Sequence record: SRR22947725_3569
Strand: one strand, 5' to 3'
Length of the DNA: 39,173 nt
Of the stretch, positions 14,425 through 34,223 are shown piece by piece. A program made the position numbers and the translations under genes. Position 1 is the first letter of the stretch, and each line of letters begins with the position of its first letter. The notes under the pieces were generated by a model that was not told where the DNA came from, did no database searches, and saw only the letters and a list, made by a program, of their open reading frames with translations.

Positions 14425-14454
14425 TTGATGTTCATCTTAAATTTCTCTTATAAT
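14425..14454 (+). promoter_or_regulatory. Sigma70-like promoter of msrB
   Basis: TTGATG(14425-14430)-18 bp-TATAAT(14449-14454), ending 6 nt before the ATG at 14461. Confidence 0.5.
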
Positions 14455-14460
14455 ACACGA

Positions 14461-14835
14461 ATGGACAAAAAGAATAATTTATCACCCGAAGCCTATCATA
14501 TCACTCAAGAATGTGGAACAGAGCCACCGTTCTCTGGTGAGTACTATAACCATAGTGAAACTGGTCACTATCACTGCATCTGTTGCGACGCACTTTTATT
14601 CGAATCTAGCACTAAATTTGACTCAGGAAGTGGCTGGCCAAGCTTTTATGAACTCGCCAATAGTGAATGTGTAAAGCAGCTAGAAGATGATTCACTAGGT
14701 CATATGAGAATTGAAGTAAGATGCTCCTCATGTGATGCTCATTTAGGCCATGTTTTTCCCGATGGACCTCAGCCCACTGGAAAGCGTTACTGTATAAACT
14801 CAGTTGCTTTAAATTTTGCTGGTGATGAGTCATAA
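14461..14835 (+). CDS. msrB: Peptide-methionine (R)-S-oxide reductase MsrB, Zn-binding type
   Basis: GTEPPFSG, CICC and CSSC Zn ligands, KFDSGSGWPSF, HLGHVFPDGP, RYCINS; ATG 14461 preferred over TTG 14425. Confidence 0.95.
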   Translation: MDKKNNLSPEAYHITQECGTEPPFSGEYYNHSETGHYHCICCDALLFESSTKFDSGSGWPSFYELANSECVKQLEDDSLGHMRIEVRCSSCDAHLGHVFPDGPQPTGKRYCINSVALNFAGDES

Positions 14836-14859
14836 CTCATTTCAAAAGAAAATCTTTAT

Positions 14860-15645: not shown

Positions 15646-15669
15646 AGCATATAGTCTGTTTACTAGCGA

Positions 15670-16251
15670 TCAGCTTTTCCAAATATGTTCGGCAAAGTGC
15701 TTTCTGCACATCGACTGGTATCGATCATTACCACCAATAACCACCTGATCTCCATCCTCAATAACGTTTCCATTTTCATCAATACGAACCACCATCGTTG
15801 CTTTACTTCCACAGTGACAAATGGTCTTCAATTCAATGAGATTATCGGCCCATGCAAGGAGATGTTGACTGCCAGGAAAAAGCTCTCCACGAAAGTCTGT
15901 GCGAATTCCATAACACAAAACTGGAACATCAAAGCTATCAACAGCTTTTGCCAATTGCATGACTTGCTCTCTACTAAGGAATTGACTCTCATCAATCAAA
16001 ACACAATCAATAGGCTCTTTAAGATTTTGTTCAGAAAGAATTTTGAACAAGTCATCATCTTTATGAAAGAGATGCGCCTCTGCTTCAAGACCAATTCTTG
16101 AAGTAACTTTTCCTACACTATAACGATTGTCAATTGCTGCAGAAAGAATAAGAGGAGTCATGCCCCTCTCTTTATAGTTGTATGCTGACTGAAGAAGGGA
16201 AGTTGATTTACCAGCATTCATTGCAGAATAATAAAAGTATAGCTTAGCCAA
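15670..16251 (-). CDS. tdk: Thymidine kinase
   Basis: [44 protein letters not shown] start with AGAGG RBS. Confidence 0.96.
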
Positions 16252-16285
16252 AATATTGCCTCTAATTATTGAAAATAACTCTTAC

Positions 16286-16315
16286 TGTATTTATTCCAAA
16301 CTAAGAATAAATACA
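16286..16315. repeat. Perfect 11-bp inverted repeat between aspA and tdk
   Basis: TGTATTTATTC-caaactaa-GAATAAATACA; minus-strand TATAAT at 16322-16327. Confidence 0.7.
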
Positions 16316-16350
16316 TTTGAAATTATAATACTCGTTATACGATAGCGAAA

Positions 16351-17748: not shown

Positions 17749-17784
17749 AGATTGAAATAACTATTAATTAAATATTGATAATTT

Positions 17785-19029
17785 TTATTGATTTTGAACC
17801 CACTCTTTAAGAACCAAAACACCTTTAACAATTTGTGGACAAATTATATCTAATAAATTATTCGAAGAAAAATCATCGTCTTTAATAATTTTGAGTGCTG
17901 CTAAGCCATCAAAATCAACAAAGGCAATGCGTGTTAAAAATTTGTCAGCTTTCAAGCCAAAATCTGAACCAGGTAGCATTGCAAAGCCAACCTCATTGAG
18001 TATTTTTTGACACAAAATTTTGTCATCATTAATTTTAGAAGCAATATTTGAAATATTCGAAAAATCGCAGATCATGTAAAAACCACCTTGAGGTTTTTGA
18101 CATTTTATTCCAACAGAAGATAACTCTTTATGAATATATTCTGCAATCGTTTTTAGGATTAATCTAGAGTGCTCTAGAAACTCTGAATGATCCTCTGAGT
18201 AGGCTTTAATTGCGGCATACTGAATAGGCGCACTAACTGAGGTAAAAGTTTCACTCGCAATAGTTCTTATGCTGTCTTTGATATAGCTTAACTCTTTTGG
18301 AAAAGTTAGCGTTCCTAGTCTCCAGCCTCCTGCACCACACCACTTGCTTAGCCCACTACTAATAATTGTATTCTCAGGATAGAAATGAGTGAGTGATTTA
18401 TACTCCCCAGTAAAATCTAGTTCGGCATATATTTCATCCGCAATAATGATGATGTTATGTTTCCTTGCAATCCTTGCAAAATCTTCAAGATTTCCATGTA
18501 TTGTCCCAGAAGGGTTATTTGGAGAATTTAAAATTAAAAGTTTATTAACTGACTTGAGATTCTCGCATACCTTGTCAAGATCCTCAGGATTAAGATGCCA
18601 ATTGCTCTCTGCTGTTGCATTAATCCAATGAATTTTTTTGTTGATTATTTGTGCTTGAGGCTCATACGAAACCCAACTTGGACTTGGAAGTAACAAATCA
18701 CAATCTAAAGCCATTTGAATTTGAAAAATTAATTCTTTTGATCCAGGCCCAATAATGACATTTTCAGAATCATAATTGTATTGATTTTTGTTTGAATGAT
18801 ATCTAGCAACTTCTTCTCTAAGGCCTAATAAGCCAGACACGTTAAGATAATCTTTTTGGTGAGAATTTTTTTTTAACTCATCAACAATTACTTTGGGCAC
18901 AGGGAATGGTGATTGACCAAGCCCAAACTTAAAAACCTCTTTGCCCTCTTCAATAAGCTCTTTAGATAACTCATTGATAGCCAAAGTGGCTGAAATTTTT
19001 AAACTTTCAATATTATTATGTATTTTCAT
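17785..19029 (-). CDS. PLP-dependent aminotransferase class I/II (aspartate aminotransferase-like)
   Basis: SATLAINE, GLGQSPF, GSKE, NSPNNPSG, DEIY, SGLSKW.GAGGWRLG (PLP Lys), GGFY. Confidence 0.88.
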   Translation of the reverse strand: MKIHNNIESLKISATLAINELSKELIEEGKEVFKFGLGQSPFPVPKVIVDELKKNSHQKDYLNVSGLLGLREEVARYHSNKNQYNYDSENVIIGPGSKELIFQIQMALDCDLLLPSPSWVSYEPQAQIINKKIHWINATAESNWHLNPEDLDKVCENLKSVNKLLILNSPNNPSGTIHGNLEDFARIARKHNIIIIADEIYAELDFTGEYKSLTHFYPENTIISSGLSKWCGAGGWRLGTLTFPKELSYIKDSIRTIASETFTSVSAPIQYAAIKAYSEDHSEFLEHSRLILKTIAEYIHKELSSVGIKCQKPQGGFYMICDFSNISNIASKINDDKILCQKILNEVGFAMLPGSDFGLKADKFLTRIAFVDFDGLAALKIIKDDDFSSNNLLDIICPQIVKGVLVLKEWVQNQ

Positions 19030-19045: not shown

Positions 19046-21595
19046 TTAGTTAACAATTTTTCGCCTTCTTCTTAATTGCACAATTCCGACAAATCCTATC
19101 AATAATACTGCTGGAATATATACAATCTGTTTTGGCGAAGTCTCCCTCTCTTGAAGAACAGATGTGATGACCCATCCACTATCAACACCAGCAACTTTTA
19201 TTGACTCAACCTGTTTATTAATTGCTCGATTTCCTGAAATTCCTGGAAGAACCATTGCAACCTCCATGTCTCCAAACAAATCATCTATTTGCAGCCCTGT
19301 ATTATTTATTCTTTCTCTACCTGATTCACCTTCAGCTAAAGGCAATAAAAATGTATAACTTCTCTCGACTCCTTCAAGTGTCTCACCCTCAACTACAAAA
19401 CGTATAGGCTCCCCCTCCGTCATATTATCAGCCACTGTAAATAAGTCCTTGCCTGGCATATTCTCAAAAGGAGGGTCTACCTTATCCCAAAAATAACCTG
19501 GCCTAAAGAACATAAATGCCACAATTAACATTAAAACGGTTTCCCATAATCGATTTTTAACAATCCAGTAACCCTGGGTTGCTGCAGCAAAAAGCAAGAT
19601 TGCAATAACAGATGAGACAACAACTGATATAAAGCTAATTGCGCTGTCTATTCCAATCATAAGTAGCTGAGTATTAAATATAAAAATGAAAGGAAGGACA
19701 GCTGTTCTCATATCATAAATAAAGCCCTGAATACCAGTTCTTATTGGATCTCCTTTAGAAATTGCTGCTGCTGCATAGGCGGCTAACCCTACTGGGGGAG
19801 TATCATCTGCAAGAATGCCAAAATAAAATACAAACATATGAGCCGCGATAAGAGGAATAGCAACATTATTAGCTGCCCCTAAACTCATAATAACGGGAGC
19901 CATTAAACTTGAGACTACTATGTAATTAGCCGTTGTCGGTAAACCCATTCCTAAAATAAGGCTTATCATAGCTGTAAAAAGAAGTATTAAAAATAAGTTG
20001 CCTGCAGCAATGAATTCAACCCAGCCTATAATCAACTGACCAACACCAGTCAATGTAACCGTACCAACAATAATGCCTGCAGCAGTAGTCGCAACACCAA
20101 CACCAATCATGTTTCTAGCGCCATTTACAAAACCTAATTTTAAGTCTGTTAAGCTAGTGAATAGGTGTTGAGTGATATCAGATTCTCCTCTAAAAATTCC
20201 TAAAAAAAACTTTTGAGTAAGTACTATAAACATCATAAACATGGTCGCCCAGTAGACTGAAGTTTCAGGCGAAAATCGTTCGACAGTTAATAACCAGATT
20301 AATAAAATAACTGGCAACAAAAAATGTAGCCCTGCTTTGACGGTCTTACCAACTTCAGGAATTTCAATAATATCTCCAGAGGGTAAATTTGGCATTTTTG
20401 AAACTGAATATAAGAGTGCAAGATAACTAGTTATCATAATTAATGCAATAATTAATGTGCTTGCTTCCCCACCTATTACTTTGATGAATTCAAAGAAGGG
20501 AGGAAGCACCCATACAAGCACACCTAAAACAATTAGAACACTGCATATACCAATTAATCTATCAACTTTATTGAGTTTATTCGTTCTAGTAAGACCCTCC
20601 ATTCCAGACTTTAGCGCTTCCAGATGAACTATATATATAAGTGCAATATATGAAATGACTGCTGGCAAGAAAGCATGCTTAATGACCTCAATGTAAGAAA
20701 CTCCCACATACTCAACCATTAGAAATGCAGCAGTTCCCATAATTGGAGGAGTTAGTTGACCATTCGTTGAAGATGCAACTTCAATTGCCCCAGCTTTTTC
20801 AGAGGGAAAACCAACCCTTTTCATTAATGGAATTGTAAAAGTCCCAGTAGTTACAACATTAGCAATAGAGGATCCAGAAATCATGCCCGTCATTGCTGAC
20901 GAAACCACCGCAGCCTTTGCAGGACCTCCTCGATAATGCCCAGTTAGGGCATATGCCACCCTTATGAAGTAATTACCAGCACCTGCCCTTTCCAATAATG
21001 CACCAAAAAGAACAAACAAGAAAACCATACTTGCTGAGACTCCAACCGCTATGCCAAATGCTCCTTCTGTCGTAATCCACATATGGGAAACAATTTTATT
21101 TAGAGAAGCTCCCCCATAACCACCTGCTCCAATAAACGCATAAGTCAATGCGATTATTGCTACAATCATTAGTGGAGGCCCTAGGGATCTTCTTGTAGCC
21201 TCTAAAAGAAGCAGAAGTCCTATAATACTCAAAAATAAGTCAGATGAGTTTGGAACTCCTAGACGCATCTCAAAAGCCCTGGAATCCCATACCTGATTAT
21301 AAATCAAATAAAAACAAGACAACGCTATGAGAAGTCCCATTAACCAGTCGGACCATGGAATTCTTGCTCTTGACGATCCTTTAAATGCAGGATAACTTAC
21401 AAATGCCAAAAAGCCTGCAAATGATACATGGACCCTTTTAACAACATCGGCATTCATCCAAGGGGTAAATTCCAAAACTAGAGGCGAAGAAACGTATAGC
21501 TGGAATATTGACCATGCCATAGCAACGTAGATTAATACGTCTCTAATTAATTTATTTTCTGGACTTCTAATTCCAGTTTCTAGGCTAACTTCCAT
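19046..21595 (-). CDS. TRAP transporter fused 4TM/12TM permease (TAXI type) with DUF3394-like C-terminus
   Basis: GGPAKAAV.SS, SGSSIANVVTTGTFTIPLMK, GQLTPPIMG, LGMGLPTTANY, ADDTPPVGLA. Confidence 0.92.
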   Translation of the reverse strand: MEVSLETGIRSPENKLIRDVLIYVAMAWSIFQLYVSSPLVLEFTPWMNADVVKRVHVSFAGFLAFVSYPAFKGSSRARIPWSDWLMGLLIALSCFYLIYNQVWDSRAFEMRLGVPNSSDLFLSIIGLLLLLEATRRSLGPPLMIVAIIALTYAFIGAGGYGGASLNKIVSHMWITTEGAFGIAVGVSASMVFLFVLFGALLERAGAGNYFIRVAYALTGHYRGGPAKAAVVSSAMTGMISGSSIANVVTTGTFTIPLMKRVGFPSEKAGAIEVASSTNGQLTPPIMGTAAFLMVEYVGVSYIEVIKHAFLPAVISYIALIYIVHLEALKSGMEGLTRTNKLNKVDRLIGICSVLIVLGVLVWVLPPFFEFIKVIGGEASTLIIALIMITSYLALLYSVSKMPNLPSGDIIEIPEVGKTVKAGLHFLLPVILLIWLLTVERFSPETSVYWATMFMMFIVLTQKFFLGIFRGESDITQHLFTSLTDLKLGFVNGARNMIGVGVATTAAGIIVGTVTLTGVGQLIIGWVEFIAAGNLFLILLFTAMISLILGMGLPTTANYIVVSSLMAPVIMSLGAANNVAIPLIAAHMFVFYFGILADDTPPVGLAAYAAAAISKGDPIRTGIQGFIYDMRTAVLPFIFIFNTQLLMIGIDSAISFISVVVSSVIAILLFAAATQGYWIVKNRLWETVLMLIVAFMFFRPGYFWDKVDPPFENMPGKDLFTVADNMTEGEPIRFVVEGETLEGVERSYTFLLPLAEGESGRERINNTGLQIDDLFGDMEVAMVLPGISGNRAINKQVESIKVAGVDSGWVITSVLQERETSPKQIVYIPAVLLIGFVGIVQLRRRRKIVN

Positions 21596-21609
21596 AAGTA
21601 ATATTCTAT

Positions 21610-21640
21610 AAAAAAAAAGGATGGCTTTGCCATCCTTTTT
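21610..21640 (-). terminator. Intrinsic terminator-like hairpin after the TAXI binding protein gene
   Basis: Minus strand AAAAA-GGATGGC-aaa-GCCATCC-TTTTTTTTT, 15 nt after the stop at 21656. Confidence 0.85.
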
Positions 21641-21655
21641 ATTATTACTTTTATC

Positions 21656-22639
21656 TTACCAGTTCATCAATCCGGCTTCTTTATAATATCTAGCTGCTCC
21701 ATCATGGAGTGGCGCAGATAAACCATCAGAAATCATTTCTGCTTTCTTTAAATTAGCAAATGCAGGGTGAAGCTTTTTGAAAGCATCAAAATTTTCAAAA
21801 ACACCTTTAACAATACTATGAATCACATGCTCAGATACAGCAGCTGAAGATACAACTGTAGCACCTACACCAAATGTTACTGTGTCGTCAGGATTTCCAT
21901 TGTACATTCCACCTGGAATAGTAGCAGTTCGATAGAAATCATTATTAGCAACTAGTCCATCTACTGCAGATCCAGTGACATTTACTAAGACACTATCACA
22001 TGATGTTGTAGCCTCTTTAATTGAACCTGATGGGTGGCCAACAGTAAAGACCATTGCATCAATTTTATTATCGCAAAGTGCTTTTGATTGCTCTGAAGAC
22101 TTCAGTTCAGAAGCAAGAGCAAATGTTGATTTATCCCAACCAAGAGCTTCCATAAGTACTTCCATAGTTCCTCTTTGTCCAGATCCTGGATTACCAATGT
22201 TTACTCGCTTACCCTTTAAATCCATAAGGTCACGGATTCCTGAATCAGCCCTAGCTACTACAGTAAAAGGTTCAGGATGAACAGAAAATACAGCCCTTAA
22301 GTCTGTAAATGCTCCGGCATCAGCAAACTTACTGGTTCCGTTATAGGCATGGTACTGCCAATCTGACTGTGCAACACCTAAATCTAACTCTCCAGCACGA
22401 ATTGTATTGATGTTGTATACCGAGCCACCAGTTGATTCAACCGTACAACGAACACCATGACTTGCTCTATCTTTGTTGACTAGGCGACAAATAGATCCGC
22501 CAGTTGGGTAGTAAACACCTGTTACTCCTCCAGTTCCAATAGTAACATATTGATCTGCAGCAATTACCGGTGCTGAAACCGTCATACTGCTAAATACAGC
22601 TGCGGCAATTGCACCACTCAAAAAATTAATTTTTTTCAT
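21656..22639 (-). CDS. TAXI-family TRAP solute-binding protein (glutamate-binding-protein-like)
   Basis: Signal peptide, [51 protein letters not shown]. Confidence 0.92.
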
Positions 22640-22790: not shown

Positions 22791-23672
22791 ATGAATTCAA
22801 ATAACTTTTCTACCGCTGAAATCAATCAAAAACTGTCTAATGGATACGTTGGTTTTTCAAAAGAGGTAAAAAAAGCAGCTAAATATGTAATGGATAATCC
22901 TGCAGAGATTCCTTTGCATTCAATACGAACTGTTGCTTCAAACGCAGGAGTTAACCCCTCAACAATGGTACGTCTTATAACCATACTAGGGTTCAAACGT
23001 TATGATGAATTCAAGGCGATATACAAAAAAGCCGCATCCCAAATGCCAGTCTCCAACTTTACATCTCACGCCAAAGATCTACTGAATGAAAATCATAATA
23101 ATCCATTTACTGACGCAGAAGCAAATGTATATAAGTCTCTTTCTGGTGCCTTCAATGAAAAAACTTACAAAGCCATTGATTCATCTGTTGAAAAATTAAT
23201 GGAAGCAGAAACTGTATATATTCTAGGAATGAGAAGCAGCTTCTCAATGGCATTTTATTTGCACTATCTTTTGCATTTTATTCTTCCAAAAACAAAATTG
23301 ATTCGTGGTCAAGAAGGAATGCTTCTTAGTGAAATTTCTCAAATAAATTCAAATGATGTTGTGATTGTATTTGGAGCATCACCTTTGTCACTTGAAACAA
23401 CTAAAGCACTCGACAAAATCAAGAAAAGAGAGGCCTTCATCATTGTAGCAACCGATATGTATACCTCTCAAGCAGCATCAAATGCAGATATCATTGTTGC
23501 ACTTGGTAATGAAACTCTTAATTTCCTTCCTAGTATTTTGCCTTATGCTGCATTTTCAGAGATCCTCGTATCCCAAATAGTAACCAAAGGTGGTAAAAAC
23601 ATGCTGGTTCGAATCAAAAAATTTGAAGACGAGCTTTCTGAAATGGGTGCATATATAAGGCCAAATCAATAG
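22791..23672 (+). CDS. MurR/RpiR family transcriptional regulator
   Basis: N-terminal HTH (SIRTVASNAGVNPSTMVRL..LGF..Y.EFK), C-terminal SIS domain (YILGMRSS, DVVIVF, ATD...S.AA); divergent from TAXI operon. Confidence 0.88.
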   Translation: MNSNNFSTAEINQKLSNGYVGFSKEVKKAAKYVMDNPAEIPLHSIRTVASNAGVNPSTMVRLITILGFKRYDEFKAIYKKAASQMPVSNFTSHAKDLLNENHNNPFTDAEANVYKSLSGAFNEKTYKAIDSSVEKLMEAETVYILGMRSSFSMAFYLHYLLHFILPKTKLIRGQEGMLLSEISQINSNDVVIVFGASPLSLETTKALDKIKKREAFIIVATDMYTSQAASNADIIVALGNETLNFLPSILPYAAFSEILVSQIVTKGGKNMLVRIKKFEDELSEMGAYIRPNQ

Positions 23673-23681
23673 CTAGGTCTA

Positions 23682-25328
23682 TTAATTTTCTTTCAGCTCT
23701 CTTCTTAGAACTTTACCAACATTTGTTTTTGGGATCTCTTTAATGAATTCAATATGCTTTGGAACCTTGTAAGCAGTTAACTTTTCCCTACAAAAACTGA
23801 TAATTTCATCCTCAGTTGCAGTTTGTTCATCATGAAGAACAATAAAAACTTTCACGAGTTCTTGAGAATTCTCGCCTTCTACTCCAACACAGCCGCATTC
23901 AAGAACAGCAGGGTGTTCATTAACCACTGCCTCAACTTCATTTGGAAAGACGTTAAAGCCTGAGACAATAATCATGTCTTTCTTTCTATCGACAATAAAA
24001 ATATTGCCAGTTTCATCAATTCGAGCAATATCACCGGTCATAAACCAGCTATTCTCGTCAAGACCTGAGACTTCGGACTTCCAATATCCGCTCATAACCT
24101 GTGGGCCTCTGACGCAGAGCTCTCCAACAGCATTCGTTTCTGAAAGAGCATTACCACTCTCATCCCTAATCTCAATTTCAGTATAGGCAGCAGGCAAACC
24201 CACAGAGCCTGTAAATTCAGTCTGCTTGTAGTCATTAACACTTACTAAAGGAGAGGTTTCAGTTAAACCATACGCCTGCCAGATTACAGATTTTGTGACC
24301 TCAGCCCATCTCTTTGCGGTTGTGTCTAATGCAGCCATACCGCCACTCAAAGACATTAGCAAATTACTAAAATCTAGCTCCTTAAAGGCATCGTAATTTA
24401 ATAGCGCCTCATAAAGCGTATTCACACCTGAAATCATGTGAAATTTATGTTTTTTCATTATTGAGACGAAAGTTTTTAGATCCCTAGGATTAGTAATCAG
24501 GACACTTCTTCCACCAATATGGAACAACATGAAGTTATGCACAGTTAATGCAAAAATATGATACAAAGGTAGTGGGCAAATAGCGATTCTTTGCTCGTTT
24601 CTTGAATCATCATACATTTTAGGATCAATTGTAAAAAAGGCTTGGATAATATTTGCAAGAATATTTCTGTGCGTCAGAACAGCGCCTTTCGAAACACCTG
24701 TTGTTCCTCCAGTATATTGAAGAAAAGCTGTACTTTCAATTGAAATATCTAATGATCCAGGACTAGAGCCTTCATTACTATTCAAAACATCAAGAAACAT
24801 TGTTGCTCCATCAATGTGATATTTGGGGACTAACTTTTTTACTTTTCTAGTGACTAAATTAATAATCTTGCCCTTGAAACCAAGAAGATCTCCAACAGTT
24901 GTTACCAATACTTTTTCTACATTAGCAAGATCTGATTTTGCTGCTACGTTGGCAACGCCCTCCCATACCAACAATAATTTAGCCTCACTATCTCTTAGTA
25001 CGTGTTCAAGTTCCCTTTGGGTATAAAGAGGATTAATATTTACAACAACAATACCTGCCTTTAAGGCAGCATAAACTATAAGAGGATAAACCAGCATATT
25101 AGGCATCATGACTGCAACTCTATCACCCACTTGAAAGTTACCACTAAGCCATGAGGCAAAAGCGTCAACCTTTTCTGACAGGTCTTCATAGGTCAATTCA
25201 ACACCGAAACTCTCAAAAGCTGTTTTACCTTTGTGCTCTCTACAACAGCTATCAAAGAACTCTACTAAATTTCCATGCTCTTTAAAAAACTCTGTTTCTT
25301 CAAGTTTATTTGGTATCTTTGTCTCCAT
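23682..25328 (-). CDS. fadD: Long-chain-fatty-acid--CoA ligase
   Basis: NPLYT.REL, LQYTGGTTGVSKGA, PLPLYHIFAL, YGLTETSP, TGDIA, VDRKKDMI.VSGFNVFPNEVE, PKTNVGKVLRR. Confidence 0.9.
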   Translation of the reverse strand: METKIPNKLEETEFFKEHGNLVEFFDSCCREHKGKTAFESFGVELTYEDLSEKVDAFASWLSGNFQVGDRVAVMMPNMLVYPLIVYAALKAGIVVVNINPLYTQRELEHVLRDSEAKLLLVWEGVANVAAKSDLANVEKVLVTTVGDLLGFKGKIINLVTRKVKKLVPKYHIDGATMFLDVLNSNEGSSPGSLDISIESTAFLQYTGGTTGVSKGAVLTHRNILANIIQAFFTIDPKMYDDSRNEQRIAICPLPLYHIFALTVHNFMLFHIGGRSVLITNPRDLKTFVSIMKKHKFHMISGVNTLYEALLNYDAFKELDFSNLLMSLSGGMAALDTTAKRWAEVTKSVIWQAYGLTETSPLVSVNDYKQTEFTGSVGLPAAYTEIEIRDESGNALSETNAVGELCVRGPQVMSGYWKSEVSGLDENSWFMTGDIARIDETGNIFIVDRKKDMIIVSGFNVFPNEVEAVVNEHPAVLECGCVGVEGENSQELVKVFIVLHDEQTATEDEIISFCREKLTAYKVPKHIEFIKEIPKTNVGKVLRRELKEN

Positions 25329-25347
25329 TTTTTCTCCTTAATCAGTA

Positions 25348-25917
25348 TTAACTGTTTTCAAGTTTGCCTATTAATATTTCCTTGTATTGATTATAAACCT
25401 CTCCATCCTTTTTGAATGCAAAACATGAGTTTGCAAACTTCTTTTCAATTGATTTAGCTTCTTCTTCAGTAATAGTCTTTGCTTCACCGCCAGTTTTTTC
25501 TTTCCAAAGCGTTTGGTAAGCAATTGTTCCTGCATAAGCTAAAAGATCGGTAATGTGCCTACAGCCCTTCTCTCCACCCATTGTTTTTATAACTTTTCGA
25601 TTGAATCCAGCAATTAAGTACTCCCCTTTCAATTTTTGACAGTTTTCAACCGCTTGTGGACAAATATTATAAGGAGAGGCATTAATTACTGCCTCAATAT
25701 CAATAATTTTTCTTTCATCATCGAGAGTCAATCTAACCGCCATATCATGAAGAGGCTCTCCTGAACTGATATAGCCTCGATGCATATTGTTAAAGGAGTA
25801 GGTTTTACTGTCAATCAGAAAGACCTCTATATCCCACAGACCATCCTCTCTTTTATAGCCTTTGCCTTTAATTGTTCTATTATGTTTTAGATCTCTCTTG
25901 GCCGGCTTAGATAGCAT
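25348..25917 (-). CDS. DUF2889-like protein, Cys/His-containing, function unknown
   Basis: H.R.I...GY.REDGLWDIE..L.D.K, PLHDM..RLT.D, PY..CP, GG.KGC.H..DL, NSC.AF pattern of DUF2889. Confidence 0.75.
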   Translation of the reverse strand: MLSKPAKRDLKHNRTIKGKGYKREDGLWDIEVFLIDSKTYSFNNMHRGYISSGEPLHDMAVRLTLDDERKIIDIEAVINASPYNICPQAVENCQKLKGEYLIAGFNRKVIKTMGGEKGCRHITDLLAYAGTIAYQTLWKEKTGGEAKTITEEEAKSIEKKFANSCFAFKKDGEVYNQYKEILIGKLENS

Positions 25918-25927
25918 CTATTTATCC

Positions 25928-26908
25928 CTATATGATTCGACTTTTTGATTTAGTATACTGCTGTTCTAATTCTATCACTAAATCCTCAACACTTGGTACA
26001 TTGGAAATAGAGCCGACACCTTGACCAGCTGAAAAAATGTCCTTCCATCTCTTAGCAGTGGCTTTGCTGACATCAAAGTCCACCTTTAGTTTCTGCTTTA
26101 TAAGAGGCATAAGCATTTTCTTAAAATCAGCAATTGTTGATTTAATTCCGCCAGCATTTGGAGAGATTCCAGCATTTTGAAGGGATTGCTCAAGCCAGTT
26201 TCCGTTAACGCCTGTAATTTTGTTAGACTTGATAATATCACTCGCTGAAGCATTTAAAATCATTTGCTTGTAGTCTTCTGTCGCATCACTCTCTTCGGTA
26301 GCAATAAAGCGCGTTCCCATGTAAGCTAAATCTGCACCTAATGCCTGAATCGCTAGAATTGAATCGCCAGAGCTTATACTTCCACCAACTATAATGGTTC
26401 CATCAAATATATTTCTTACCTCGGATACAAAAGCAAATGGAGACAAGTCTCCGGTATGACCACCAGCGCCATTACAAACTAAAATTAGTCCATCTACACC
26501 AGCACTGATTGCTTTTTTTGAGTGATACAAATTGATCACATCGGAATAGACTAAACCGCCATAATCATGCACCTTTTGAACGACCTCTTTGGGATTACCA
26601 AGAGAGGTAATAACGATTGGGGGTTTATGCTTAAGAATTAAATCTATATCATCATTACTCCTGGCATACATTTTACTGACAATGATATTTACTGCCCATG
26701 GTAATGCATCCTTGTCAGAGCCTAAAGCTTGATTTATATTAGTAAATTCTTGATCTAAAGCCTTTAAAGTTCGGCAATTTGCGGTCGGAAAAGAGCCAAC
26801 AATGCCTGCCTTTGATGAGGCGATTACAAGCCTTGCGTTTGAGACAATAAACATGGGTGACTGAATAATTGGCAGTCTAAGTCGGTCAATGTAGTTTTGA
26901 TTTGTCAT
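25928..26908 (-). CDS. Nitronate monooxygenase / FabK-like FMN TIM-barrel flavoprotein (COG2070)
   Basis: LPIIQSPMF.VS, AVNII, ITSLG.P, GAGGHTG, GADLAYMGTRFIAT.ES, WKDIFSAGQG. Confidence 0.85.
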   Translation of the reverse strand: MTNQNYIDRLRLPIIQSPMFIVSNARLVIASSKAGIVGSFPTANCRTLKALDQEFTNINQALGSDKDALPWAVNIIVSKMYARSNDDIDLILKHKPPIVITSLGNPKEVVQKVHDYGGLVYSDVINLYHSKKAISAGVDGLILVCNGAGGHTGDLSPFAFVSEVRNIFDGTIIVGGSISSGDSILAIQALGADLAYMGTRFIATEESDATEDYKQMILNASASDIIKSNKITGVNGNWLEQSLQNAGISPNAGGIKSTIADFKKMLMPLIKQKLKVDFDVSKATAKRWKDIFSAGQGVGSISNVPSVEDLVIELEQQYTKSKSRII

Positions 26909-26915
26909 AAACTAT

Positions 26916-28103
26916 TTAGCATCTTTTAATAATTCCTGCTGCCCCCATTCCGGTTCCAATACACATAGTCACCATACCATAATCAATCTTTTCTCTTTGC
27001 ATAGCTGAGATCAGTGTCGCAACTCTGATTGCTCCAGTAGCACCCAGGGGGTGCCCAAGTGCTATTGCTCCACCAAGCGGATTCACTTTTTCAGGGTCAA
27101 GATTCAATTCCTTAATGACAGCCAAGGATTGGGCAGCAAAAGCCTCATTAAGCTCTATCCAACCAATGTCATCAAGACTAAGATTCAAAGAATTAAGAAC
27201 CTTTGGAACTGCCTTGACTGGACCAATACCCATAATTTCTGCCGGAACACCTGCTACAGAAAAGCCCATAAATTCAGCCTTAGGCGTTAGATTATACTTT
27301 TCAACAGCCTCTTCACTGGCAACAAGAACAGCTGCGGCTGCATCTGACATTTGCGAACTGTTTCCTGCCGTAACTGAACCATCTTGTGCAAATACGGTTC
27401 TAAGCTTTGCTAGAATTTCTAGACTTGTATCTTTTCTGGGCCCTTCATCTTTAGAAACAAGATTGGTATTTTTTATATACTCATTAGATTTAACTGAATA
27501 GCTATCCTCGACAGTTGATATTGGAGCAATTTCATTCTCAAATAAGCCGTTATTATTTGCATGAATAGCTTTTTGGTGACTCTCATAAGCAAATTGGTCT
27601 TGGGCTTCTCTAGTGATACCATATTTCTGAACTACCTTCTCCGCTGTCAGCCCCATACCATAAGCAATAGAAATATTCTCATCAGACAAAATTTTAGGGT
27701 TCATTGAAGGCTTAAAGCCTGTCATCGGAACACTACTCATGCTTTCGACGCCAGCAGCAATGACCAGATCAGATGATCCAGATTTTACTAGGTCAGCAGC
27801 ATTAGATACGGATTGAAGCCCGGACGAGCAAAATCTATTTAATGTATAAGCAGGAGTCGAATCTGGCAGACCAGCAAGTAGTGTAGCAATTCGAGCAATA
27901 TTTAGTCCTTGGGGTCCCTCTGGCATGGCACAGCCAACAATAATATCGTCAATACTCTTGTTGATTTCTTCACTTGAATCTGATGCTTTAAGCACACTTT
28001 GTATGGCATGAACCAATAAGTCATCTGCTCTAGTTTTGGATAGTAATCCTCTGGCTTTTCCTACTGGAGTTCTTTTTGCATCAATAATATAAGCTTTTCT
28101 CAT
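26916..28103 (-). CDS. fadA: Acetyl-CoA C-acyltransferase (3-ketoacyl-CoA thiolase)
   Basis: NRFCSSGLQ, NEAFA, GGAIALGHPLGATG, MCIGTGMGAA; GGAG spacing favours second ATG (28103) over 28106. Confidence 0.92.
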   Translation of the reverse strand: MRKAYIIDAKRTPVGKARGLLSKTRADDLLVHAIQSVLKASDSSEEINKSIDDIIVGCAMPEGPQGLNIARIATLLAGLPDSTPAYTLNRFCSSGLQSVSNAADLVKSGSSDLVIAAGVESMSSVPMTGFKPSMNPKILSDENISIAYGMGLTAEKVVQKYGITREAQDQFAYESHQKAIHANNNGLFENEIAPISTVEDSYSVKSNEYIKNTNLVSKDEGPRKDTSLEILAKLRTVFAQDGSVTAGNSSQMSDAAAAVLVASEEAVEKYNLTPKAEFMGFSVAGVPAEIMGIGPVKAVPKVLNSLNLSLDDIGWIELNEAFAAQSLAVIKELNLDPEKVNPLGGAIALGHPLGATGAIRVATLISAMQREKIDYGMVTMCIGTGMGAAGIIKRC

Positions 28104-28115
28104 CATATTCTCCAG

Positions 28116-30554
28116 TTAATTGCGAAGGGGTTTACTATTTCGAAGCATAAACTCAATTCTGTCTTGAGTTTTCTGAGTACCCAAAAGCTCAACGAAGTAT
28201 TTTCTTTCAAGATCTAATATCATTTTTGAATTCACTACAGTGTTCTCCTCAACCAGAGAGCCTGTCATCACTTTGGCTAATGAAGAGATGCAATATTTAT
28301 CATGTTCGGACATAAAGTTTCCCTCAAAGAGGTTGGCAACTTGAGCCATGATGTTTGCATAACCAGCCTTACCAACTACTTTGAATGTGTCATCCAATGG
28401 AGATCTGAAGCCTGACTCTAGCATTGCTAAAGCTTGATTTTTTGCAACGTAAAGTAATTCATTTGGATTAGCAATAATGACATCTTCAGTCTTCAGGTAT
28501 CCCATTTCCTTTGCTTCCAGAGCGCTAGCAGAGACTTTTGCCATTGCAATCTGCTCAAAATGTTTAGATAACAGAGGAAATATATCATCAGACTCTTTAT
28601 TTAAATATGCCCTTAGCGCCATCTCCTTGCTACCACAACCAGCAGGAATTCCTCCAATACCAACTTCCACTAGACCGATATAAGAGTTCATTGAGGCAAC
28701 TACTCTATTGCAGTGAAGTAAAAGCTCACAGCCCCCTCCGAGAGCTAGCCCATCTACCGCAGCTATGGTTAATATTTTGCCATGTTTAAGACGCATCAAC
28801 AAATCTTGCAACATGCGGACCGTTTTTTTAATTGAGTATAGTTTTCCAAGTTTTGGGAGCTCAGGATGCATGACCTCAAAAGCCTTCTTTTTTGCCTTAG
28901 ATGACAGTCCAGGGTCCTTTTCAAGCAGACCAAGCTTAATTGCCGAAATAACCTCATAGAGGTTAGCGCCAGCACAAAAATGTTCTTGTTCCTGTTTAAA
29001 AATAAGGGCGTGAAAGCCATTGTTTTCCAGATAATCAAGGCATTCAGGTAATTCAGTTAATACACTGGAACTTAAAACATTCATTTTTGTCTTAAAAGAA
29101 ACGCTAGCAACACCGTCTCCTATGTCAATTAATTTAGTCGATTCACCATCTATCAAGATATCTAGATGGCCTTTCTTTTCTCCATTAAGGAGTGCTTTAT
29201 TTAATTGCCTTTCATAGACCGGATGAGAAGACCTCGGAATAAACTTATTCTTATTTGGATTAAATGCACCCTCGTCAGAATAGACAAAAGCTTGATCCAT
29301 GACCCATGCTGGCAAGGTTTGATTTGAAAGCGTTTTTCCATCCTGAATGTCTTGATTCAGTAACTCTCTTACCTCAGACCAACCAGTCACCTGAACTTGT
29401 TCAAAGATTCCTTTTTGCCAGGCAAATCCTGACTTCAATGCTAAATCAACACATCTTGCAGTTTCAGCAACATGCTCAAGATGATAGGCAGTGTAATGAA
29501 ATACATCTCGATGAACTGACCACAAGAATTGAGCTTGTGGATCATCACATTTAGAGAGCTCCAGAAGAGCATTTTCTATGGTTCTACTATCTTTTATTAT
29601 TTTCTTAACTTTGGGACTAATCGTTTTGTCAGAGAGCCTATATTCTCCGTCCTTAGGGTCAAAGACAAATATATCTTTACCAACTTTTTCATAGATTCCC
29701 TTTCGGGTTTTACTTCCTAACGAGCCCTTCTCAATTAAAGCCTCGATCCAATCTGGAAGTTGAAATAACTCAATCCAGGGATCATCTTTCGCATTTTCAT
29801 ATATATTTTTGACTACGTTAGCCATGACATCAAGGCCAACAACATCCAGGGTCCTAAAGGTAGCACTAGCAGGCCTTCCAATTCTCTTTCCAGTCAACGC
29901 ATCTACTGTGTCAGCAGAAAGGTTAAAGTTTTCTGCGTGCCTCAGAACTGCCATAAATGAGAAAACACCAATCCTATTGGCAACAAACGCAGGACTATCT
30001 TTTGCATAAACAACCTCCTTACCAAGTGCTGAAGTAATAAAACCCTCAGCCTTTATTAAAAGACTCTCGTCGCTATATGAGGTTCTAATGAGTTCAACCA
30101 GCGGCAAATATCTAGGAGGATTAAAGAAATGCACGCCAAAAATTCGACTCCTTAAACTATCGGGTGCTGCCTCAGCTATTTTTTGAATTGACAAACCAGA
30201 TGTATTCGTTACTAGAATGGCATTCTCATTAACATGTGGTGAAATTTGTTTAAAAAGCTTTTTTTTGATATCTAGATTTTCTACAATAGACTCTATGATG
30301 AAGTCACAACTTGATAATGCATCTAAATTTTCATAGGTTGATGTCTTAAGTAAGCCTGGAACTGAGGGACTTGCAAATGGCGTAGGCTTTAATTTCTTCA
30401 TCATTGCTATAGATTTTGATAGAGCTTCCTCACTGGTATCAAACATCAGAGTTTCAAAACCTAAATTGGCAAAGTGGACAGCAATTTGTCCACCCATTGT
30501 TCCAGAGCCTAATACAGCAATCTTAGTAAAGGCTTTATCAAAAAATTCTTTCAT
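28116..30554 (-). CDS. fadB: 3-hydroxyacyl-CoA dehydrogenase/enoyl-CoA hydratase, HAD-first (FadN-type) multifunctional enzyme
   Basis: GSGTMG, E..VENLDIK, NTSGL, HFFNPPRY, FVANRIG; C-terminal crotonase (FCAGANL, ALGGGCE, GLVEVG); ends KPLRN. Confidence 0.9.
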   Translation of the reverse strand: MKEFFDKAFTKIAVLGSGTMGGQIAVHFANLGFETLMFDTSEEALSKSIAMMKKLKPTPFASPSVPGLLKTSTYENLDALSSCDFIIESIVENLDIKKKLFKQISPHVNENAILVTNTSGLSIQKIAEAAPDSLRSRIFGVHFFNPPRYLPLVELIRTSYSDESLLIKAEGFITSALGKEVVYAKDSPAFVANRIGVFSFMAVLRHAENFNLSADTVDALTGKRIGRPASATFRTLDVVGLDVMANVVKNIYENAKDDPWIELFQLPDWIEALIEKGSLGSKTRKGIYEKVGKDIFVFDPKDGEYRLSDKTISPKVKKIIKDSRTIENALLELSKCDDPQAQFLWSVHRDVFHYTAYHLEHVAETARCVDLALKSGFAWQKGIFEQVQVTGWSEVRELLNQDIQDGKTLSNQTLPAWVMDQAFVYSDEGAFNPNKNKFIPRSSHPVYERQLNKALLNGEKKGHLDILIDGESTKLIDIGDGVASVSFKTKMNVLSSSVLTELPECLDYLENNGFHALIFKQEQEHFCAGANLYEVISAIKLGLLEKDPGLSSKAKKKAFEVMHPELPKLGKLYSIKKTVRMLQDLLMRLKHGKILTIAAVDGLALGGGCELLLHCNRVVASMNSYIGLVEVGIGGIPAGCGSKEMALRAYLNKESDDIFPLLSKHFEQIAMAKVSASALEAKEMGYLKTEDVIIANPNELLYVAKNQALAMLESGFRSPLDDTFKVVGKAGYANIMAQVANLFEGNFMSEHDKYCISSLAKVMTGSLVEENTVVNSKMILDLERKYFVELLGTQKTQDRIEFMLRNSKPLRN

Positions 30555-30569
30555 AGTTACCCCAAATCT

Positions 30570-33026
30570 TTATTTATCCAAACTCTCATAGTCATCAACT
30601 TTTAATGCCTCGAGAACTAAATCATTTAACCTTAACCAATTCTCTCGATCTTCTATTGTTAGGGTTTTATTATCAACAAGTCCTTGAAGCCAAAACTCCA
30701 ATGTAATGCTGGGCTGGTATTTGTACCCTGCTTTTTTTGACTTATCTCTTAAAATTTTTAATTCTTTTCCAGCTTCAAAGCCTTTGAAAAGAATGTTAAA
30801 AGGGTGATCAGGCTTGTCTTTAAGGTTAGCGCAAATGCATGTTGATAGGTTTTTTTCTATCCACTCAGTATCAAGAACAGCTCTTGAAGTATTAATAATC
30901 AGCTTGTCGTCGATTTTAGAAGCGGTAACTGAAAATGGAAAAAACAAAAGCCTTAACAACCATTTAGCCACTCTGTTGATTGGCATGCTTTCAATATTTA
31001 GAAGCATTGAAGTGTCTGCCTCTTGAATGAGTCTAAGAATTGAAAGCTTAAGTATGGTCTTTGCGTAATCATCATTCAGAAACTTCTCTTCATAAAGTTT
31101 TAAGCAAGAACTAATTTCGTACATTGCTGAAATCGAATCTGCAAACCTTCCCGATATCATTTCTTTTCTTTTAAGTGAGCCACCTAAGAGCAGAGAGGCA
31201 ATATCAGTTAAACAGGCAAACTTGGCTGACAATACAGAAAGATTACGATAATAGACTTTGGTAGTGTGGTCCCCATATGGTTTAGCTAGTCGTCCACGAG
31301 ACCATGAAAACAAAATTGCTCTGGCAATATTATTAATAAAACTGCCGACATGAATGACTAGTGCTTTGTCAAACCTTTTGATAGAGTCTTTGCTTTCATC
31401 ATGAAGTGCTCTCAACTCATCAAGCATTGTTTTATGACATCTAATTAGGCCTTGGCCAAAAATCATCAAGCTTCTTGTTAGAATGTTTGCCCCCTCAACT
31501 GTAATGGCAACGGGTGCACCTGAATAAACATTCGATACATAATTTCTCTTGCCCTCCATGACCGCTCTTCCGCCATGGACATCCATTGCATCGATTGAAG
31601 AGCTTTGAAGTAGCTGTGTATTTCTATATTTAACAATCGCAGAAATAATGGAAGGTCTGTGGCCTGCATCAAGAGCCCAAGTAGAGAGGTTTATATTTGC
31701 AGTTGCCCTAAATGCATTTGTTGCAAGATTTGAAAGCTTCTCCTGGATTCCCTCCATTTTTGCAATCGGTATTCCAAATTGTTCGCGCGTTTGTGAATAT
31801 GTGCTTGTTGTCAAAAGCATTGCTTGCGTAGCAGATGCACCTGTTACTGGAAGAGAAATTCCTCTGCCAACGCTGAGACACTCCATGAGCATTCTCCAAC
31901 CATGGCCAATCATCTTGTCACCACCAATGACCCAGTCCATTGGAATAAAGACATCCTTACCGAAGATGGGGCCATTTTGAAATGGCTCTCCTATTGGTTT
32001 ATGTCGGGTTCCTATACTTAGACCGTCCGTATTTCGTGGGATCAATGCGCAAGTAATCCCTAAGTCATTTTTTTTGTAAAGAGGGTGGTCATCTGCAAGC
32101 AAGTTATCAGGGTCATAGGCCTTAAAGGCCAAACCAATGACAGTAGCAATTGGGGCAAGAGTGATGTAGCGTTTTTCCCAATTCAGCCTTAATCCTAGTA
32201 CTTTTTTTCCATCAAACTGGCCATAGCAAACGATTCCATTATCAACTAAAGATCCAGCATCAGAACCTGCCACTGTTGATGTTAATCCAAAGCATGGGAT
32301 CTCTTTGCCTTTTGCAAGGCGGGGCAAGTAGTGTTGTTTTTGCTCCTCAGTGCCATATTTTAAAAGCAGTTCACCCGGTCCAAGAGAATTTGGAACCATG
32401 GCTGCAATTCCTAAAAATTGTGAGGCCGAAGAGAGCTTACCAACAATAATAGCATGGGCAAAGTGAGAGAAGCCTTTTCCATTAAACTCTTGAGGAATAA
32501 TTAAACCTAAAAATCCTTTGTCAAAAATGAACTTCCAGACTTCCTTAGGGAGATCGTTTGTTGATTGAATTTCATGAGAGTCGACCATCGCGCACAATGT
32601 CTCAACCTCATTATCAACAAAGCTTTGCTCCTCATCTGTCAACTGCGTAGCCTCTAGATCAGTTAATTCTTTCCAATTTGGATCACCTTGAAAGAGTTCT
32701 GCATCCCACCAAACGCTACCAGCCTCGAGGGCAATACTTTCTGTGACACCGATTGGCGGTAAAGATTTACGCATTACTTTGAAGAGGGGTTTGGAAAATA
32801 ATATCATCCTAATGTTTGGTACGATAAGTAGACCAATGACAAAAAGAATAAGGAGGAGGAATTGTGCTCCAAAGTGATTTGCAATGACAGCGCCTGGGTA
32901 GGTTAATCCTAAGGCCAGAAGCCATAGCTGCCACATCTTTATATTTGTCTTAACAAGAACCAACAGCATTAAGACTACAGATAAAAGAAAAGAGAGTAGT
33001 GAGTATTCAAATATTGTTTCAAGCAT
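30570..33026 (-). CDS. fadE: Membrane-anchored acyl-CoA dehydrogenase FadE
   Basis: N-terminal TM helices, ALEAG.VWW, MVPNSLGPGELL..YGT, AGSDAG, KRYITLAPIAT, ITVEGANILTR, GG.LKR.E..S.R. Confidence 0.93.
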   Translation of the reverse strand: MLETIFEYSLLSFLLSVVLMLLVLVKTNIKMWQLWLLALGLTYPGAVIANHFGAQFLLLILFVIGLLIVPNIRMILFSKPLFKVMRKSLPPIGVTESIALEAGSVWWDAELFQGDPNWKELTDLEATQLTDEEQSFVDNEVETLCAMVDSHEIQSTNDLPKEVWKFIFDKGFLGLIIPQEFNGKGFSHFAHAIIVGKLSSASQFLGIAAMVPNSLGPGELLLKYGTEEQKQHYLPRLAKGKEIPCFGLTSTVAGSDAGSLVDNGIVCYGQFDGKKVLGLRLNWEKRYITLAPIATVIGLAFKAYDPDNLLADDHPLYKKNDLGITCALIPRNTDGLSIGTRHKPIGEPFQNGPIFGKDVFIPMDWVIGGDKMIGHGWRMLMECLSVGRGISLPVTGASATQAMLLTTSTYSQTREQFGIPIAKMEGIQEKLSNLATNAFRATANINLSTWALDAGHRPSIISAIVKYRNTQLLQSSSIDAMDVHGGRAVMEGKRNYVSNVYSGAPVAITVEGANILTRSLMIFGQGLIRCHKTMLDELRALHDESKDSIKRFDKALVIHVGSFINNIARAILFSWSRGRLAKPYGDHTTKVYYRNLSVLSAKFACLTDIASLLLGGSLKRKEMISGRFADSISAMYEISSCLKLYEEKFLNDDYAKTILKLSILRLIQEADTSMLLNIESMPINRVAKWLLRLLFFPFSVTASKIDDKLIINTSRAVLDTEWIEKNLSTCICANLKDKPDHPFNILFKGFEAGKELKILRDKSKKAGYKYQPSITLEFWLQGLVDNKTLTIEDRENWLRLNDLVLEALKVDDYESLDK

Positions 33027-33191: not shown

Positions 33192-34223
33192 ATGAATACT
33201 TTCAGCGGAGTCTGGAGGTGTATCCAAAGACTTCATCAAATTCACCCTTATGAGGTGGAGACAATATTCCAAAGGGTTGGAATAGAAAAGCGTTTATTAA
33301 CCAATCAAAATGTCTCAATACCTGTCGAAATACTCCTAAACTTTGTCATTGATGCCCAGACCGTTTTTAAAGACGAGCTAGTGTCAATTAATTTTGGACG
33401 GATGGCGCAAGTAAGGCCTAACTATGGAGAAGCATTTGGGTTAGTATTTGTGTACTCAAAAAATCTCCAACAAGGTTTAAAGCTTTTGCAATCCTTCATT
33501 AATACAGAATTAGAGGGTCTAAACTTTCTAATCATTGAAGAGAAAAACCACATTAAAATTCAATCTGTTGTTGACCCAAAAATAAAAAATCCGTCAATTT
33601 ATGAAAACCTTGGACTATCTATTCTTGCATCATTTATTAGGTCAAAACGATTTCAGATCAAACAAATTAATACTAAAACAGTCACTCAGATAGACGATAT
33701 TAAAGAAAAATCTGTATTTAACTGTCCGGTTTTTACATCCTGTGAAGAAACATCACTTTTAATTAGTAAAAAAAATTATCTTAAAAAAAATAGCCTCTCT
33801 AATCCTAATCTGGTTAATTATCTGAGCACTATTCTGGAGGCAAAAGCAAATAACATGACTTCAAAGATTAGTCTAACTGAGAAGGTTGAGAGACTCATGA
33901 ATAATTATGAAAATCATTTCAACTTAATCAATATTCAGGATGTATCAATCCATCTTGGATTAAGTACAAATTCTCTTCGCAATCAATTACTAAAGGAAAA
34001 TACAACTTTTCGAAAGGTGCTTAATAACTTTAAGCTTAGTAAATCAAAAAATCTATTAAATGGAGGATTCTCTGTAAAAGTGATTTCATATCAGCTAGGA
34101 TATGCTGATCCTTCATCGTTTGTCAGATGGTTTATCGGTCAAACGGATTTAACTCCATCTGCTTATAAGTTGTTATTTAAGGTTAAAGTGCTAGCAGATT
34201 TGCATTACCGCCAGAAGCAGTAG
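33192..34223 (+). CDS. AraC-family transcriptional regulator (long N-terminal ligand domain)
   Basis: C-terminal double HTH (DVSIHLGLS..SLR.QL.KENTTF; ISYQLGYADPSSFVRWF....TPSAYK), F.CPV segment; divergent from fad operon. Confidence 0.85.
   Translation: MNTFSGVWRCIQRLHQIHPYEVETIFQRVGIEKRLLTNQNVSIPVEILLNFVIDAQTVFKDELVSINFGRMAQVRPNYGEAFGLVFVYSKNLQQGLKLLQSFINTELEGLNFLIIEEKNHIKIQSVVDPKIKNPSIYENLGLSILASFIRSKRFQIKQINTKTVTQIDDIKEKSVFNCPVFTSCEETSLLISKKNYLKKNSLSNPNLVNYLSTILEAKANNMTSKISLTEKVERLMNNYENHFNLINIQDVSIHLGLSTNSLRNQLLKENTTFRKVLNNFKLSKSKNLLNGGFSVKVISYQLGYADPSSFVRWFIGQTDLTPSAYKLLFKVKVLADLHYRQKQ

Follow-up and report, generated by a model that had tools for sequence, protein, structure and literature searches.

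We describe here a six-gene beta-oxidation operon within a stretch of 39,173 nucleotides from sequence record SRR22947725_3569 (the window, as the whole analyzed stretch is called below). Along with genes for the core activities, the operon holds one gene for a FabK-like flavoprotein of the nitronate monooxygenase (NMO) family and one for a protein of the family DUF2889. These two are likely to be independent accessory genes and not the one two-gene module that a preliminary description of the window had seen in them. Specifically, the flavoprotein gene would be an optional insertion between fadA and the DUF2889 gene, added in one lineage, and the DUF2889 protein would assist acyl-CoA oxidation, not the flavoprotein, with a probable place of action at or close to the hydroxyacyl-CoA dehydrogenase step. 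Beta-oxidation is generally taken as fully described, and DUF2889 is a small, strongly conserved Cys/His protein tied to acyl-CoA catabolism; moreover, the case illustrates that two genes cannot be called a module merely because they lie close together in a streamlined genome.

The distribution of the two genes was observed at three levels, the first being the family of the host. Among 61 genomes of this family, the NMO gene was present in seven, all from the genus of the window (g1, 7/8), and DUF2889 in 10, comprising 8/8 members of g1 and 2/2 of g328. Two sister operons, from G462 (L246, the same as public locus L003) and G435 (L248), had the order fadE-fadB-fadA-DUF2889-fadD; the flavoprotein gene was absent, and fadA was separated from DUF2889 by 17-19 bp. 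The flavoprotein gene was present in G413 (L249), which is of similar divergence (62-64% identity). None of the operon variants from the family, down to 60% identity, lacked DUF2889. The operon is thus known both with and without the flavoprotein gene, and DUF2889 is its constant member.

Beyond the genus, the two genes were not found side by side. In the best 80 public DUF2889 loci (mostly from records titled Alphaproteobacteria, and some merely 3-5 kb long) together with the nearest genome, G001, an NMO homologue lay beside DUF2889 in 0/79 loci outside the genus and adjoined it in two loci of the window's genus only. Likewise, no NMO homologue was located near DUF2889 in 40 loci (approximately +/-8 kb) from an even sample of 401 gammaproteobacterial genomes (0/40), and DUF2889 was present in 0/35 loci of the flavoprotein clade, 29 of which had homologues of at least 40% identity. 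Within the class sample, PF11136, the Pfam family of DUF2889, occurred in 37/401 genomes (~9%) and close homologues of the flavoprotein (E<=1e-60; 40-52% identity) in 26/401. Both were encoded in 6/401 genomes against ~2.4 expected by chance, an excess that means little because kin are not independent, and in the five such genomes outside the genus the two genes either were on separate contigs or had at least 14 kb between them.

The operon itself occupies the minus strand at 23682-33026, where six co-directional open reading frames (ORFs) follow each other in the order fadE-fadB-fadA-NMO-DUF2889-fadD (Table 1). The intergenic gaps along this order were 15, 9, 7, 10, and 19 bp, in agreement with the 7-19 bp first reported. 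Acyl-CoA dehydrogenase, hydratase/dehydrogenase, thiolase, and ligase were all found together, and gene order and Pfam/NCBIfam assignments bore out the proposal that both odd genes lie inside a complete beta-oxidation operon. FadE, with the Pfam domains ACDH_C and Acyl-CoA_dh N, M, and 1, and FadA scored above curated cut-offs. FadB and FadD were assigned from domain content, their best NCBIfam models being below cut-off (for FadD, PRK07059 at 653 bits, under a cut-off of 869). By Pfam, the 3-hydroxyacyl-CoA dehydrogenase part of FadB is N-terminal and the enoyl-CoA hydratase part C-terminal. As in the canonical fadE, fadBA, and fadD genes, all four core activities are represented, here co-directional and tightly spaced. 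Unlike those genes, they form a single operon with a dehydrogenase-first FadB (the reversed domain order), two accessory genes, and an adjoining gene for an AraC-type regulator. The host is a small-genome marine gammaproteobacterium, the closest public relative of which is labelled uncultured Piscirickettsiaceae bacterium, and the nearest genome (G001; 1.7 Mb, one contig) carries the same operon.

A pattern scan within the operon revealed no excess of terminator-like sites (7 seen versus 7.5 expected). Marine metatranscriptome contigs from four runs in four studies spanned the whole operon stretch. They bridged the fadD/DUF2889/NMO junctions (e.g., 24958-26023, 24808-26512, and 23497-26452) and the NMO/fadA junction (26055-27275), so that the operon is present in RNA libraries, which is not proof of a single transcript. 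Contig ends located near both borders of the operon give no more than a faint indication of where transcripts end. Relative to L002, a locus from a 90%-identical relative, the ratio of nonsynonymous to synonymous substitution rates (dN/dS) was 0.051 for the flavoprotein gene and 0.033 for the DUF2889 gene, as compared with 0.030-0.067 for the fad genes, and GC content at third codon positions was similar across all six. Both odd genes are thus under purifying selection as strong as that on the fad genes and are functional, as had been anticipated from their retention.

Turning to the DUF2889 protein, its genomic company repeatedly included genes of acyl-CoA catabolism. In the gammaproteobacterial sample, such genes were located within 5 kb in 13/38 loci, based on a Pfam scan of the first 150 of 206 ORFs, with the other loci assessed from cluster representatives and 15 hand-picked ORFs. 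A gene for 3-hydroxy-3-methylglutaryl-CoA (HMG-CoA) lyase was directly upstream of DUF2889 in eight loci from four families, four of which (4/8) also had subunits of methylcrotonyl-CoA carboxylase. Other neighbors within 5 kb were enoyl-CoA hydratase (7 loci), the beta and alpha subunits of electron-transfer flavoprotein (ETF; 6 and 5 loci, respectively), and an acyl-CoA dehydrogenase (ACAD) of ~600 aa (5 loci), as well as thiolase and CoA ligase. A FadB-like gene was 8 bp from DUF2889 in two gammaproteobacterial loci, and three more public loci (Marinobacterium L070, Motiliproteus L037, and L120) had the arrangement fadD-DUF2889 or fadD-DUF2889-fadB-fadA.

Five long fusion proteins contained DUF2889, none of them fused to PF03060, the Pfam family of the flavoprotein. 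In two, P0076 (638 aa) and P0077 (619 aa), one of which is named Acidocella sp. by NCBI, the full DUF2889 was joined to a 3-hydroxyacyl-CoA dehydrogenase. These two were 63% identical over 607 residues, linker included, and the fusion is therefore conserved and no one-off miscall. P0079 combined DUF2889 with ATP-grasp_2 (SucC-like), P0080 an acyltransferase with DUF2889, and the fifth had an unassigned N-terminal part. Among possible partners of DUF2889, the most specific signal is thus for the hydroxyacyl-CoA dehydrogenase (NAD-dependent) and ligase steps, and not for a flavoprotein. Complex prediction for FadB residues 1-300 with DUF2889 yielded an interface score (ipSAE) of 0.00 in both runs, made without controls, and speaks neither for nor against binding.

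The DUF2889 protein matched PF11136 over its full extent (profile 1-123 of 123; 122.6 bits, cut-off 25). Conservation was evaluated from alignments of 27 diverse homologues and then of 123 sequences (the window protein, 117 locus ORFs, and the five long fusion proteins). His57, Cys86, Cys119, and His121, along with Pro82, Gly98, and Gly104, were retained in 123/123 sequences, Cys165 and His12 in 121/123, and a DGLWDIE block and several Arg and Asp residues in at least 90% of the 123. All motifs named in the preliminary description (PLHDM, ICPQ, NCQ, GCRH, and NSCF in DUF2889, and GGH in the flavoprotein) were located in the translations. Of the four cysteines it had emphasized, three (Cys86, Cys119, and Cys165) proved to be conserved, and the fourth, Cys93 of the NCQ motif, was found in only 3/123 sequences. 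An AlphaFold2 model built from the 27-sequence alignment (mean predicted local distance difference test score of 86.8) had four long beta strands followed by helices, with Cys86 and Cys119/His121 placed at helix N-termini. DUF2889 is a small cytoplasmic alpha+beta protein with an invariant His2Cys2 site, plus a further Cys and a further His; judged by its conservation, this site most likely binds a metal ion or an Fe-S cluster.

The model suggests, not decisively, that the fold is IscU-like. Foldseek comparison of the model with the PDB recovered nothing at E<=0.001. In a wide structural search the first-ranked entry was Zn-bound IscU (Z 7.6, 104 residues), with the proviso of the tool that a Z below 8 may reflect merely a common arrangement. 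In a second structural comparison, human ISCU2 reached Z 7.6-7.8 at a root-mean-square deviation of 2.5-2.8 A over ~95 of ~125 residues, and IscU or SufU made up 19 of the 30 best entries. The likeness to IscU, ISCU2, and SufU (NifU_N) would consist in a ligand set of the Cys3-plus-His type at helix N-termini after a beta sheet. DUF2889 differs from them in its lack of profile similarity, in one additional invariant His, and in numerous charged residues that are likewise invariant. Apart from PF11136, the protein had no Pfam match at E<=0.001, and so none to NifU_N. When solved structures were searched with a profile from the DUF2889 alignment, nothing was returned at E<=10, NCBIfam has no model for the family, and the protein atlas offered only a 0.77 feature match to DUF3870, under the threshold for a lead. 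A remote-homology survey (PMC4520260) contains a fold assignment for DUF2889 and no function. The Ig-like clathrin-adaptor appendage fold given in its supplement came from one method at the lowest confidence and conflicts with the alpha+beta AlphaFold2 model; it was set aside.

Because DUF2889 is recurrently found beside acyl-CoA enzymes, and in one lineage fused to them, we infer a role in acyl-CoA oxidation, probably at the hydroxyacyl-CoA dehydrogenase step or close to it. A more explicit version, that DUF2889 is an undescribed, IscU-like metal or Fe-S subunit that docks on the NAD-dependent 3-hydroxyacyl-CoA dehydrogenase and tunes this step or passes on reducing equivalents, is put forward as a tentative and, on balance, rather unlikely proposal. 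If true, beta-oxidation and leucine catabolism would gain a component that has been overlooked widely across Proteobacteria. The tie to acyl-CoA catabolism as such offers a concrete, cheap hypothesis for de-orphaning a family that is present in about a tenth of the sampled gammaproteobacterial genomes and in many loci titled Alphaproteobacteria. The recurrent tie of DUF2889 to acyl-CoA catabolism, fusion included, is associative and appears undescribed. A full-text search, with most subscription journals outside its reach, found no function for DUF2889, and another paper, which likewise gives no function, lists a DUF2889 gene among the core genes under positive selection in the Burkholderia cepacia complex.

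Several points weigh against our reading. Within the genus, 7/8 genomes keep the flavoprotein and DUF2889 genes adjacent, so that a partnership specific to this lineage may exist. Gene order, conservation, selection, distribution, neighborhoods, and fusions are shown directly; cofactor, substrate, and possible partner proteins are deduced, not observed. The structural match to IscU ties with one to the C-terminal subdomain of the xanthine/aldehyde oxidase FAD domain (Z up to 8.0), and hhalign comparison of DUF2889 with an 11-sequence IscU/SufU alignment gave a probability of only 1.7%. Just five DUF2889 fusion proteins were detected among 8000 scored candidates. Large proteobacterial genomes commonly carry acyl-CoA genes, and the 13/38 loci stand without a background rate; in the other 25/38 gammaproteobacterial loci the neighbors were unrelated. 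Roughly half of the best 80 public loci placed DUF2889 in a conserved housekeeping block without any acyl-CoA gene, seen among L004-L081, in the order aroK-aroB-(unknown, 180 aa)-CNNM/CorC-DUF2889-(RHH_4, opposite strand)-J-domain-cobS-cobT. In these 80 loci, aroK was counted in 41, aroB in 44, CNNM/CorC in 40, the J-domain gene in 44, cobS in 39, and cobT in 34. Given the 25/38 loci, the link of DUF2889 to acyl-CoA catabolism is recurrent, not general. Finally, G421 (86% complete), a genome assigned to another genus, encodes an 87%-identical DUF2889 in a context without fad genes, which could be due to translocation, transfer, or a binning error. On its contig (G421:C33, L247), the gene is at 8001-8570, between genes for a CN-hydrolase and an NAD-binding protein.

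A small ribbon-helix-helix gene adjoined DUF2889 in 25 public loci. A J-domain/BolA-type Fe-S link that had been considered for the block in loci titled Alphaproteobacteria was rejected, as the small gene beside DUF2889 encodes this ribbon-helix-helix protein and not BolA.

The conserved block in loci titled Alphaproteobacteria, the unrelated gammaproteobacterial neighbors, and the near-identical copy in G421 outside any fad cluster would all suit a DUF2889 that is a general housekeeping protein, metal-binding or Fe-S-related, with an accidental place in the operon and no specific acyl-CoA role. We regard this explanation as doubtful, since DUF2889 is fixed between fadA and fadD in operon variants down to 60% identity, is independently linked, across several families, with clusters of fad genes, of liu genes (HMG-CoA lyase, methylcrotonyl-CoA carboxylase), and of ETF/ACAD genes, and takes part in the conserved fusion to 3-hydroxyacyl-CoA dehydrogenase.

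The second accessory gene encodes a new member of a known family, in our reading a marine FabK-like flavoenzyme recruited into fatty-acid degradation and independent of DUF2889. Residues 11-315 of the flavoprotein matched PF03060 along profile positions 11-329 of 331 (104.8 bits; cut-off 28). Among solved structures, the top matches were FabK chains (1.6e-23 to 1.6e-20), the best being 7l00 (1.6e-23, residues 9-253). Chains titled nitronate monooxygenase or 2-nitropropane dioxygenase, together with PA1024, were much weaker (1.8e-10 to 1e-5; 2.4e-10 to 1.3e-5 for chains titled nitronate monooxygenase), including 4q4k and 6bka, both titled nitronate monooxygenase, at 2e-6 or weaker. The AGGHTG motif of the flavoprotein, with the His of GGH, aligned with GGGHIG of 7l00 and AGGHIG of 2z6i. 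In comparison with FabK (7l00, 2z6i, and 5gvh), the flavoprotein thus shares the Pfam family, the TIM-barrel fold that binds flavin mononucleotide (FMN), and the aligned His. It differs in failing the FabK equivalog model TIGR03151 (106.8 bits versus a cut-off of 453.1) and in being encoded in a degradation operon, not a synthesis operon. For the latter reason it probably acts on a CoA thioester, as opposed to an acyl carrier protein thioester.

Genes of the flavoprotein clade often had acyl-CoA enzyme genes as neighbors. By Pfam, acyl-CoA dehydrogenase, FadB/3HCDH, hydratase, thiolase-like, or CoA-transferase genes were within 300 bp in 9/29 loci, and in 12/29 after three loci found by BLAST and clustering were added, in which an acyl-CoA dehydrogenase was just past 300 bp or masked by an over-long ORF call. 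The commonest direct neighbors were acyl-CoA dehydrogenases and hydratases, and one locus (L193) had a fadA-fadB-NMO-ACAD operon without DUF2889. In two loci (L205, 6945-7952; L195, 6820-7836), the gene of the NMO clade adjoined one for a medium-chain (zinc-type) dehydrogenase/reductase, a superfamily that, according to PMC4029986, includes AcuI-type acrylyl-CoA reductases.

Two FabK-like PF03060 proteins tied to CoA thioesters in catabolic contexts provide precedents. IpdC (Rv3553-type 5-OH HIC-CoA reductase) of a steroid pathway is described in PMC5380842 as 30% identical to FabK and as containing flavin, with the FabK reaction proposed to run in reverse on 5-OH HIC-CoA. ArkA, an acrylate-resistance protein of Bacillus, according to PMC4029986 rescues an acrylate-sensitive E. 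coli acuI mutant and confers no triclosan resistance, and is an acrylyl-CoA reductase only by the prediction of its authors. The analogy draws on the published descriptions of the two proteins, of which IpdC acts on a steroid-ring CoA ester and ArkA presumably on acrylyl-CoA. Based on the FabK-like matches, the acyl-CoA neighbors, and the IpdC and ArkA precedents, the flavoprotein is therefore read as an FMN-dependent enoyl- or acyl-CoA oxidoreductase. By analogy with these two enzymes, it would most likely work at the alpha,beta position, either reducing the double bond of some enoyl-CoA or introducing one into some acyl-CoA. No account of an NMO/FabK-like gene in an operon of this type was found in the literature searched, which lies mostly outside subscription journals.

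Alternatively, the flavoprotein could be no acyl-CoA enzyme at all, and instead a genuine nitronate monooxygenase or an NADH:quinone reductase for re-oxidation of the NADH from FadB. The protein does match Pfam NMO. Chains named nitronate monooxygenase and PA1024, which we take to be an NADH:quinone reductase, are detectable relatives (2.4e-10 to 4e-8), and an NADH sink is plausible beside a dehydrogenase. We nevertheless hold this alternative to be unlikely: FabK chains match far better (1e-23 to 1e-20), the commonest direct neighbors of the clade belong to acyl-CoA metabolism, and two FabK-like enzymes are tied to CoA thioesters in PMC5380842 and PMC4029986. This alternative and that of a housekeeping DUF2889 each concern one gene only, and the likelihoods given for them overlap with those of the other readings.

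FabX of Helicobacter pylori, an FMN plus [4Fe-4S] dehydrogenase/isomerase, is of the same broad family as the flavoprotein (PMC8626469) and served the preliminary description as an example of an acyl-chain enzyme with both flavin and Fe-S. In FabX a single polypeptide carries the cluster. With just two Cys among its 326 aa (positions 45 and 145), the flavoprotein of the window cannot hold a FabX-like cluster; the supposed partner in trans does not co-occur with it outside the genus. A heteromeric module, in which DUF2889 provides in trans the metal or Fe-S center that FabX has in cis and the pair replaces FadH in processing cis or conjugated double bonds, would account for the 10-bp spacing and the adjacency within the genus down to 62-64% identity, and for a conserved Cys/His site in DUF2889 next to a flavoprotein with no cluster of its own, yet it is improbable in view of the sister operons that retain DUF2889 alone, the separation of the genes outside the genus, the clade members in fad-like clusters without DUF2889 (e.g., L193), the DUF2889 fusions to NAD-dependent dehydrogenase and ligase-type domains and not to PF03060, and the FadH/OYE-family gene of the nearest genome. 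That gene of G001 encodes a 691-aa Fe-S flavoenzyme of the FadH/OYE family. Its top NCBIfam model, mycofactocin-system FadH/OYE, was well below cut-off, which makes it only a candidate FadH.

Thus, of what had been proposed for the pair, the two-gene unit did not stand, given the 0/79, 0/40, and 0/35 loci and the absence of the NMO gene from G462 and G435, and handling of double bonds without FadH is weakened because the nearest genome has the FadH/OYE-family gene. The idea of DUF2889 as a metal or Fe-S partner survived in part, in that its conserved Cys/His site resembles a metal or Fe-S site, and lost the partnership with the flavoprotein. The neighborhood comparison of DUF2889 with the flavoprotein clade and the fad genes revealed no co-occurrence with the clade at any locus outside the genus, an outcome that the preliminary description had named as refuting, and repeatedly placed each gene, separately, near acyl-CoA genes.

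Table 1. Genes of the beta-oxidation operon and the adjoining regulator gene, in window coordinates.
Feature	Position	Strand	Basis and remarks
fadE, FadE-type acyl-CoA dehydrogenase, 818 aa	30570-33026	-	NCBIfam PRK13026, 896 bits (cut-off 608)
fadB-like bifunctional enzyme, 812 aa	28116-30554	-	Pfam 3HCDH_N 11-186, 3HCDH 190-289, ECH_1 581-643
fadA, acetyl-CoA C-acyltransferase (thiolase), 396 aa	26916-28106	-	NCBIfam PRK09052, 602 bits (cut-off 567)
NMO-family FabK-like FMN oxidoreductase (putative), 326 aa	25928-26908	-	PF03060, 8.2e-30; optional operon member
DUF2889 protein, 189 aa	25348-25917	-	PF11136, 1.4e-35; fixed member, between fadA (or the NMO gene) and fadD
fadD-like long-chain fatty-acid-CoA ligase, 548 aa	23682-25328	-	Pfam AMP-binding, 9.7e-86, and AMP-binding_C
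AraC-type regulator	33192-34223	+	Pfam HTH_18, 4.6e-12; Arabinose_bd, 2e-4, below its cut-off

The AraC-type gene is divergent from fadE and located ~165 bp upstream of it. From this position alone, its product is a candidate for regulating the operon and would stand in for a regulator of the FadR or TetR type.

A second acyl-CoA cluster was present on the minus strand of the window at 5589-10169, encoding a 4HBT_2 thioesterase-like protein (175 aa), an acyl-CoA dehydrogenase (385 aa), an enoyl-CoA hydratase (261 aa), and an ADP-forming acyl-CoA synthetase (685 aa; ATP-grasp_5 / Succ_CoA_lig / CoA_binding_2). Just downstream of the operon region, also on the minus strand, an 849-aa fused permease of the tripartite ATP-independent periplasmic (TRAP) type (DctM + DUF3394; 19046-22639) was accompanied by an NMT1_3 (TAXI-like) binding protein. 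An RpiR/SIS regulator gene (22791-23672, plus strand) was convergent with fadD. In L002, the DNA downstream of fadD (12428-19004) was unlike that of the window, with six co-directional ORFs where the window has the RpiR gene, among them a second ligase-like gene of 608 aa with 28% identity to fadD.

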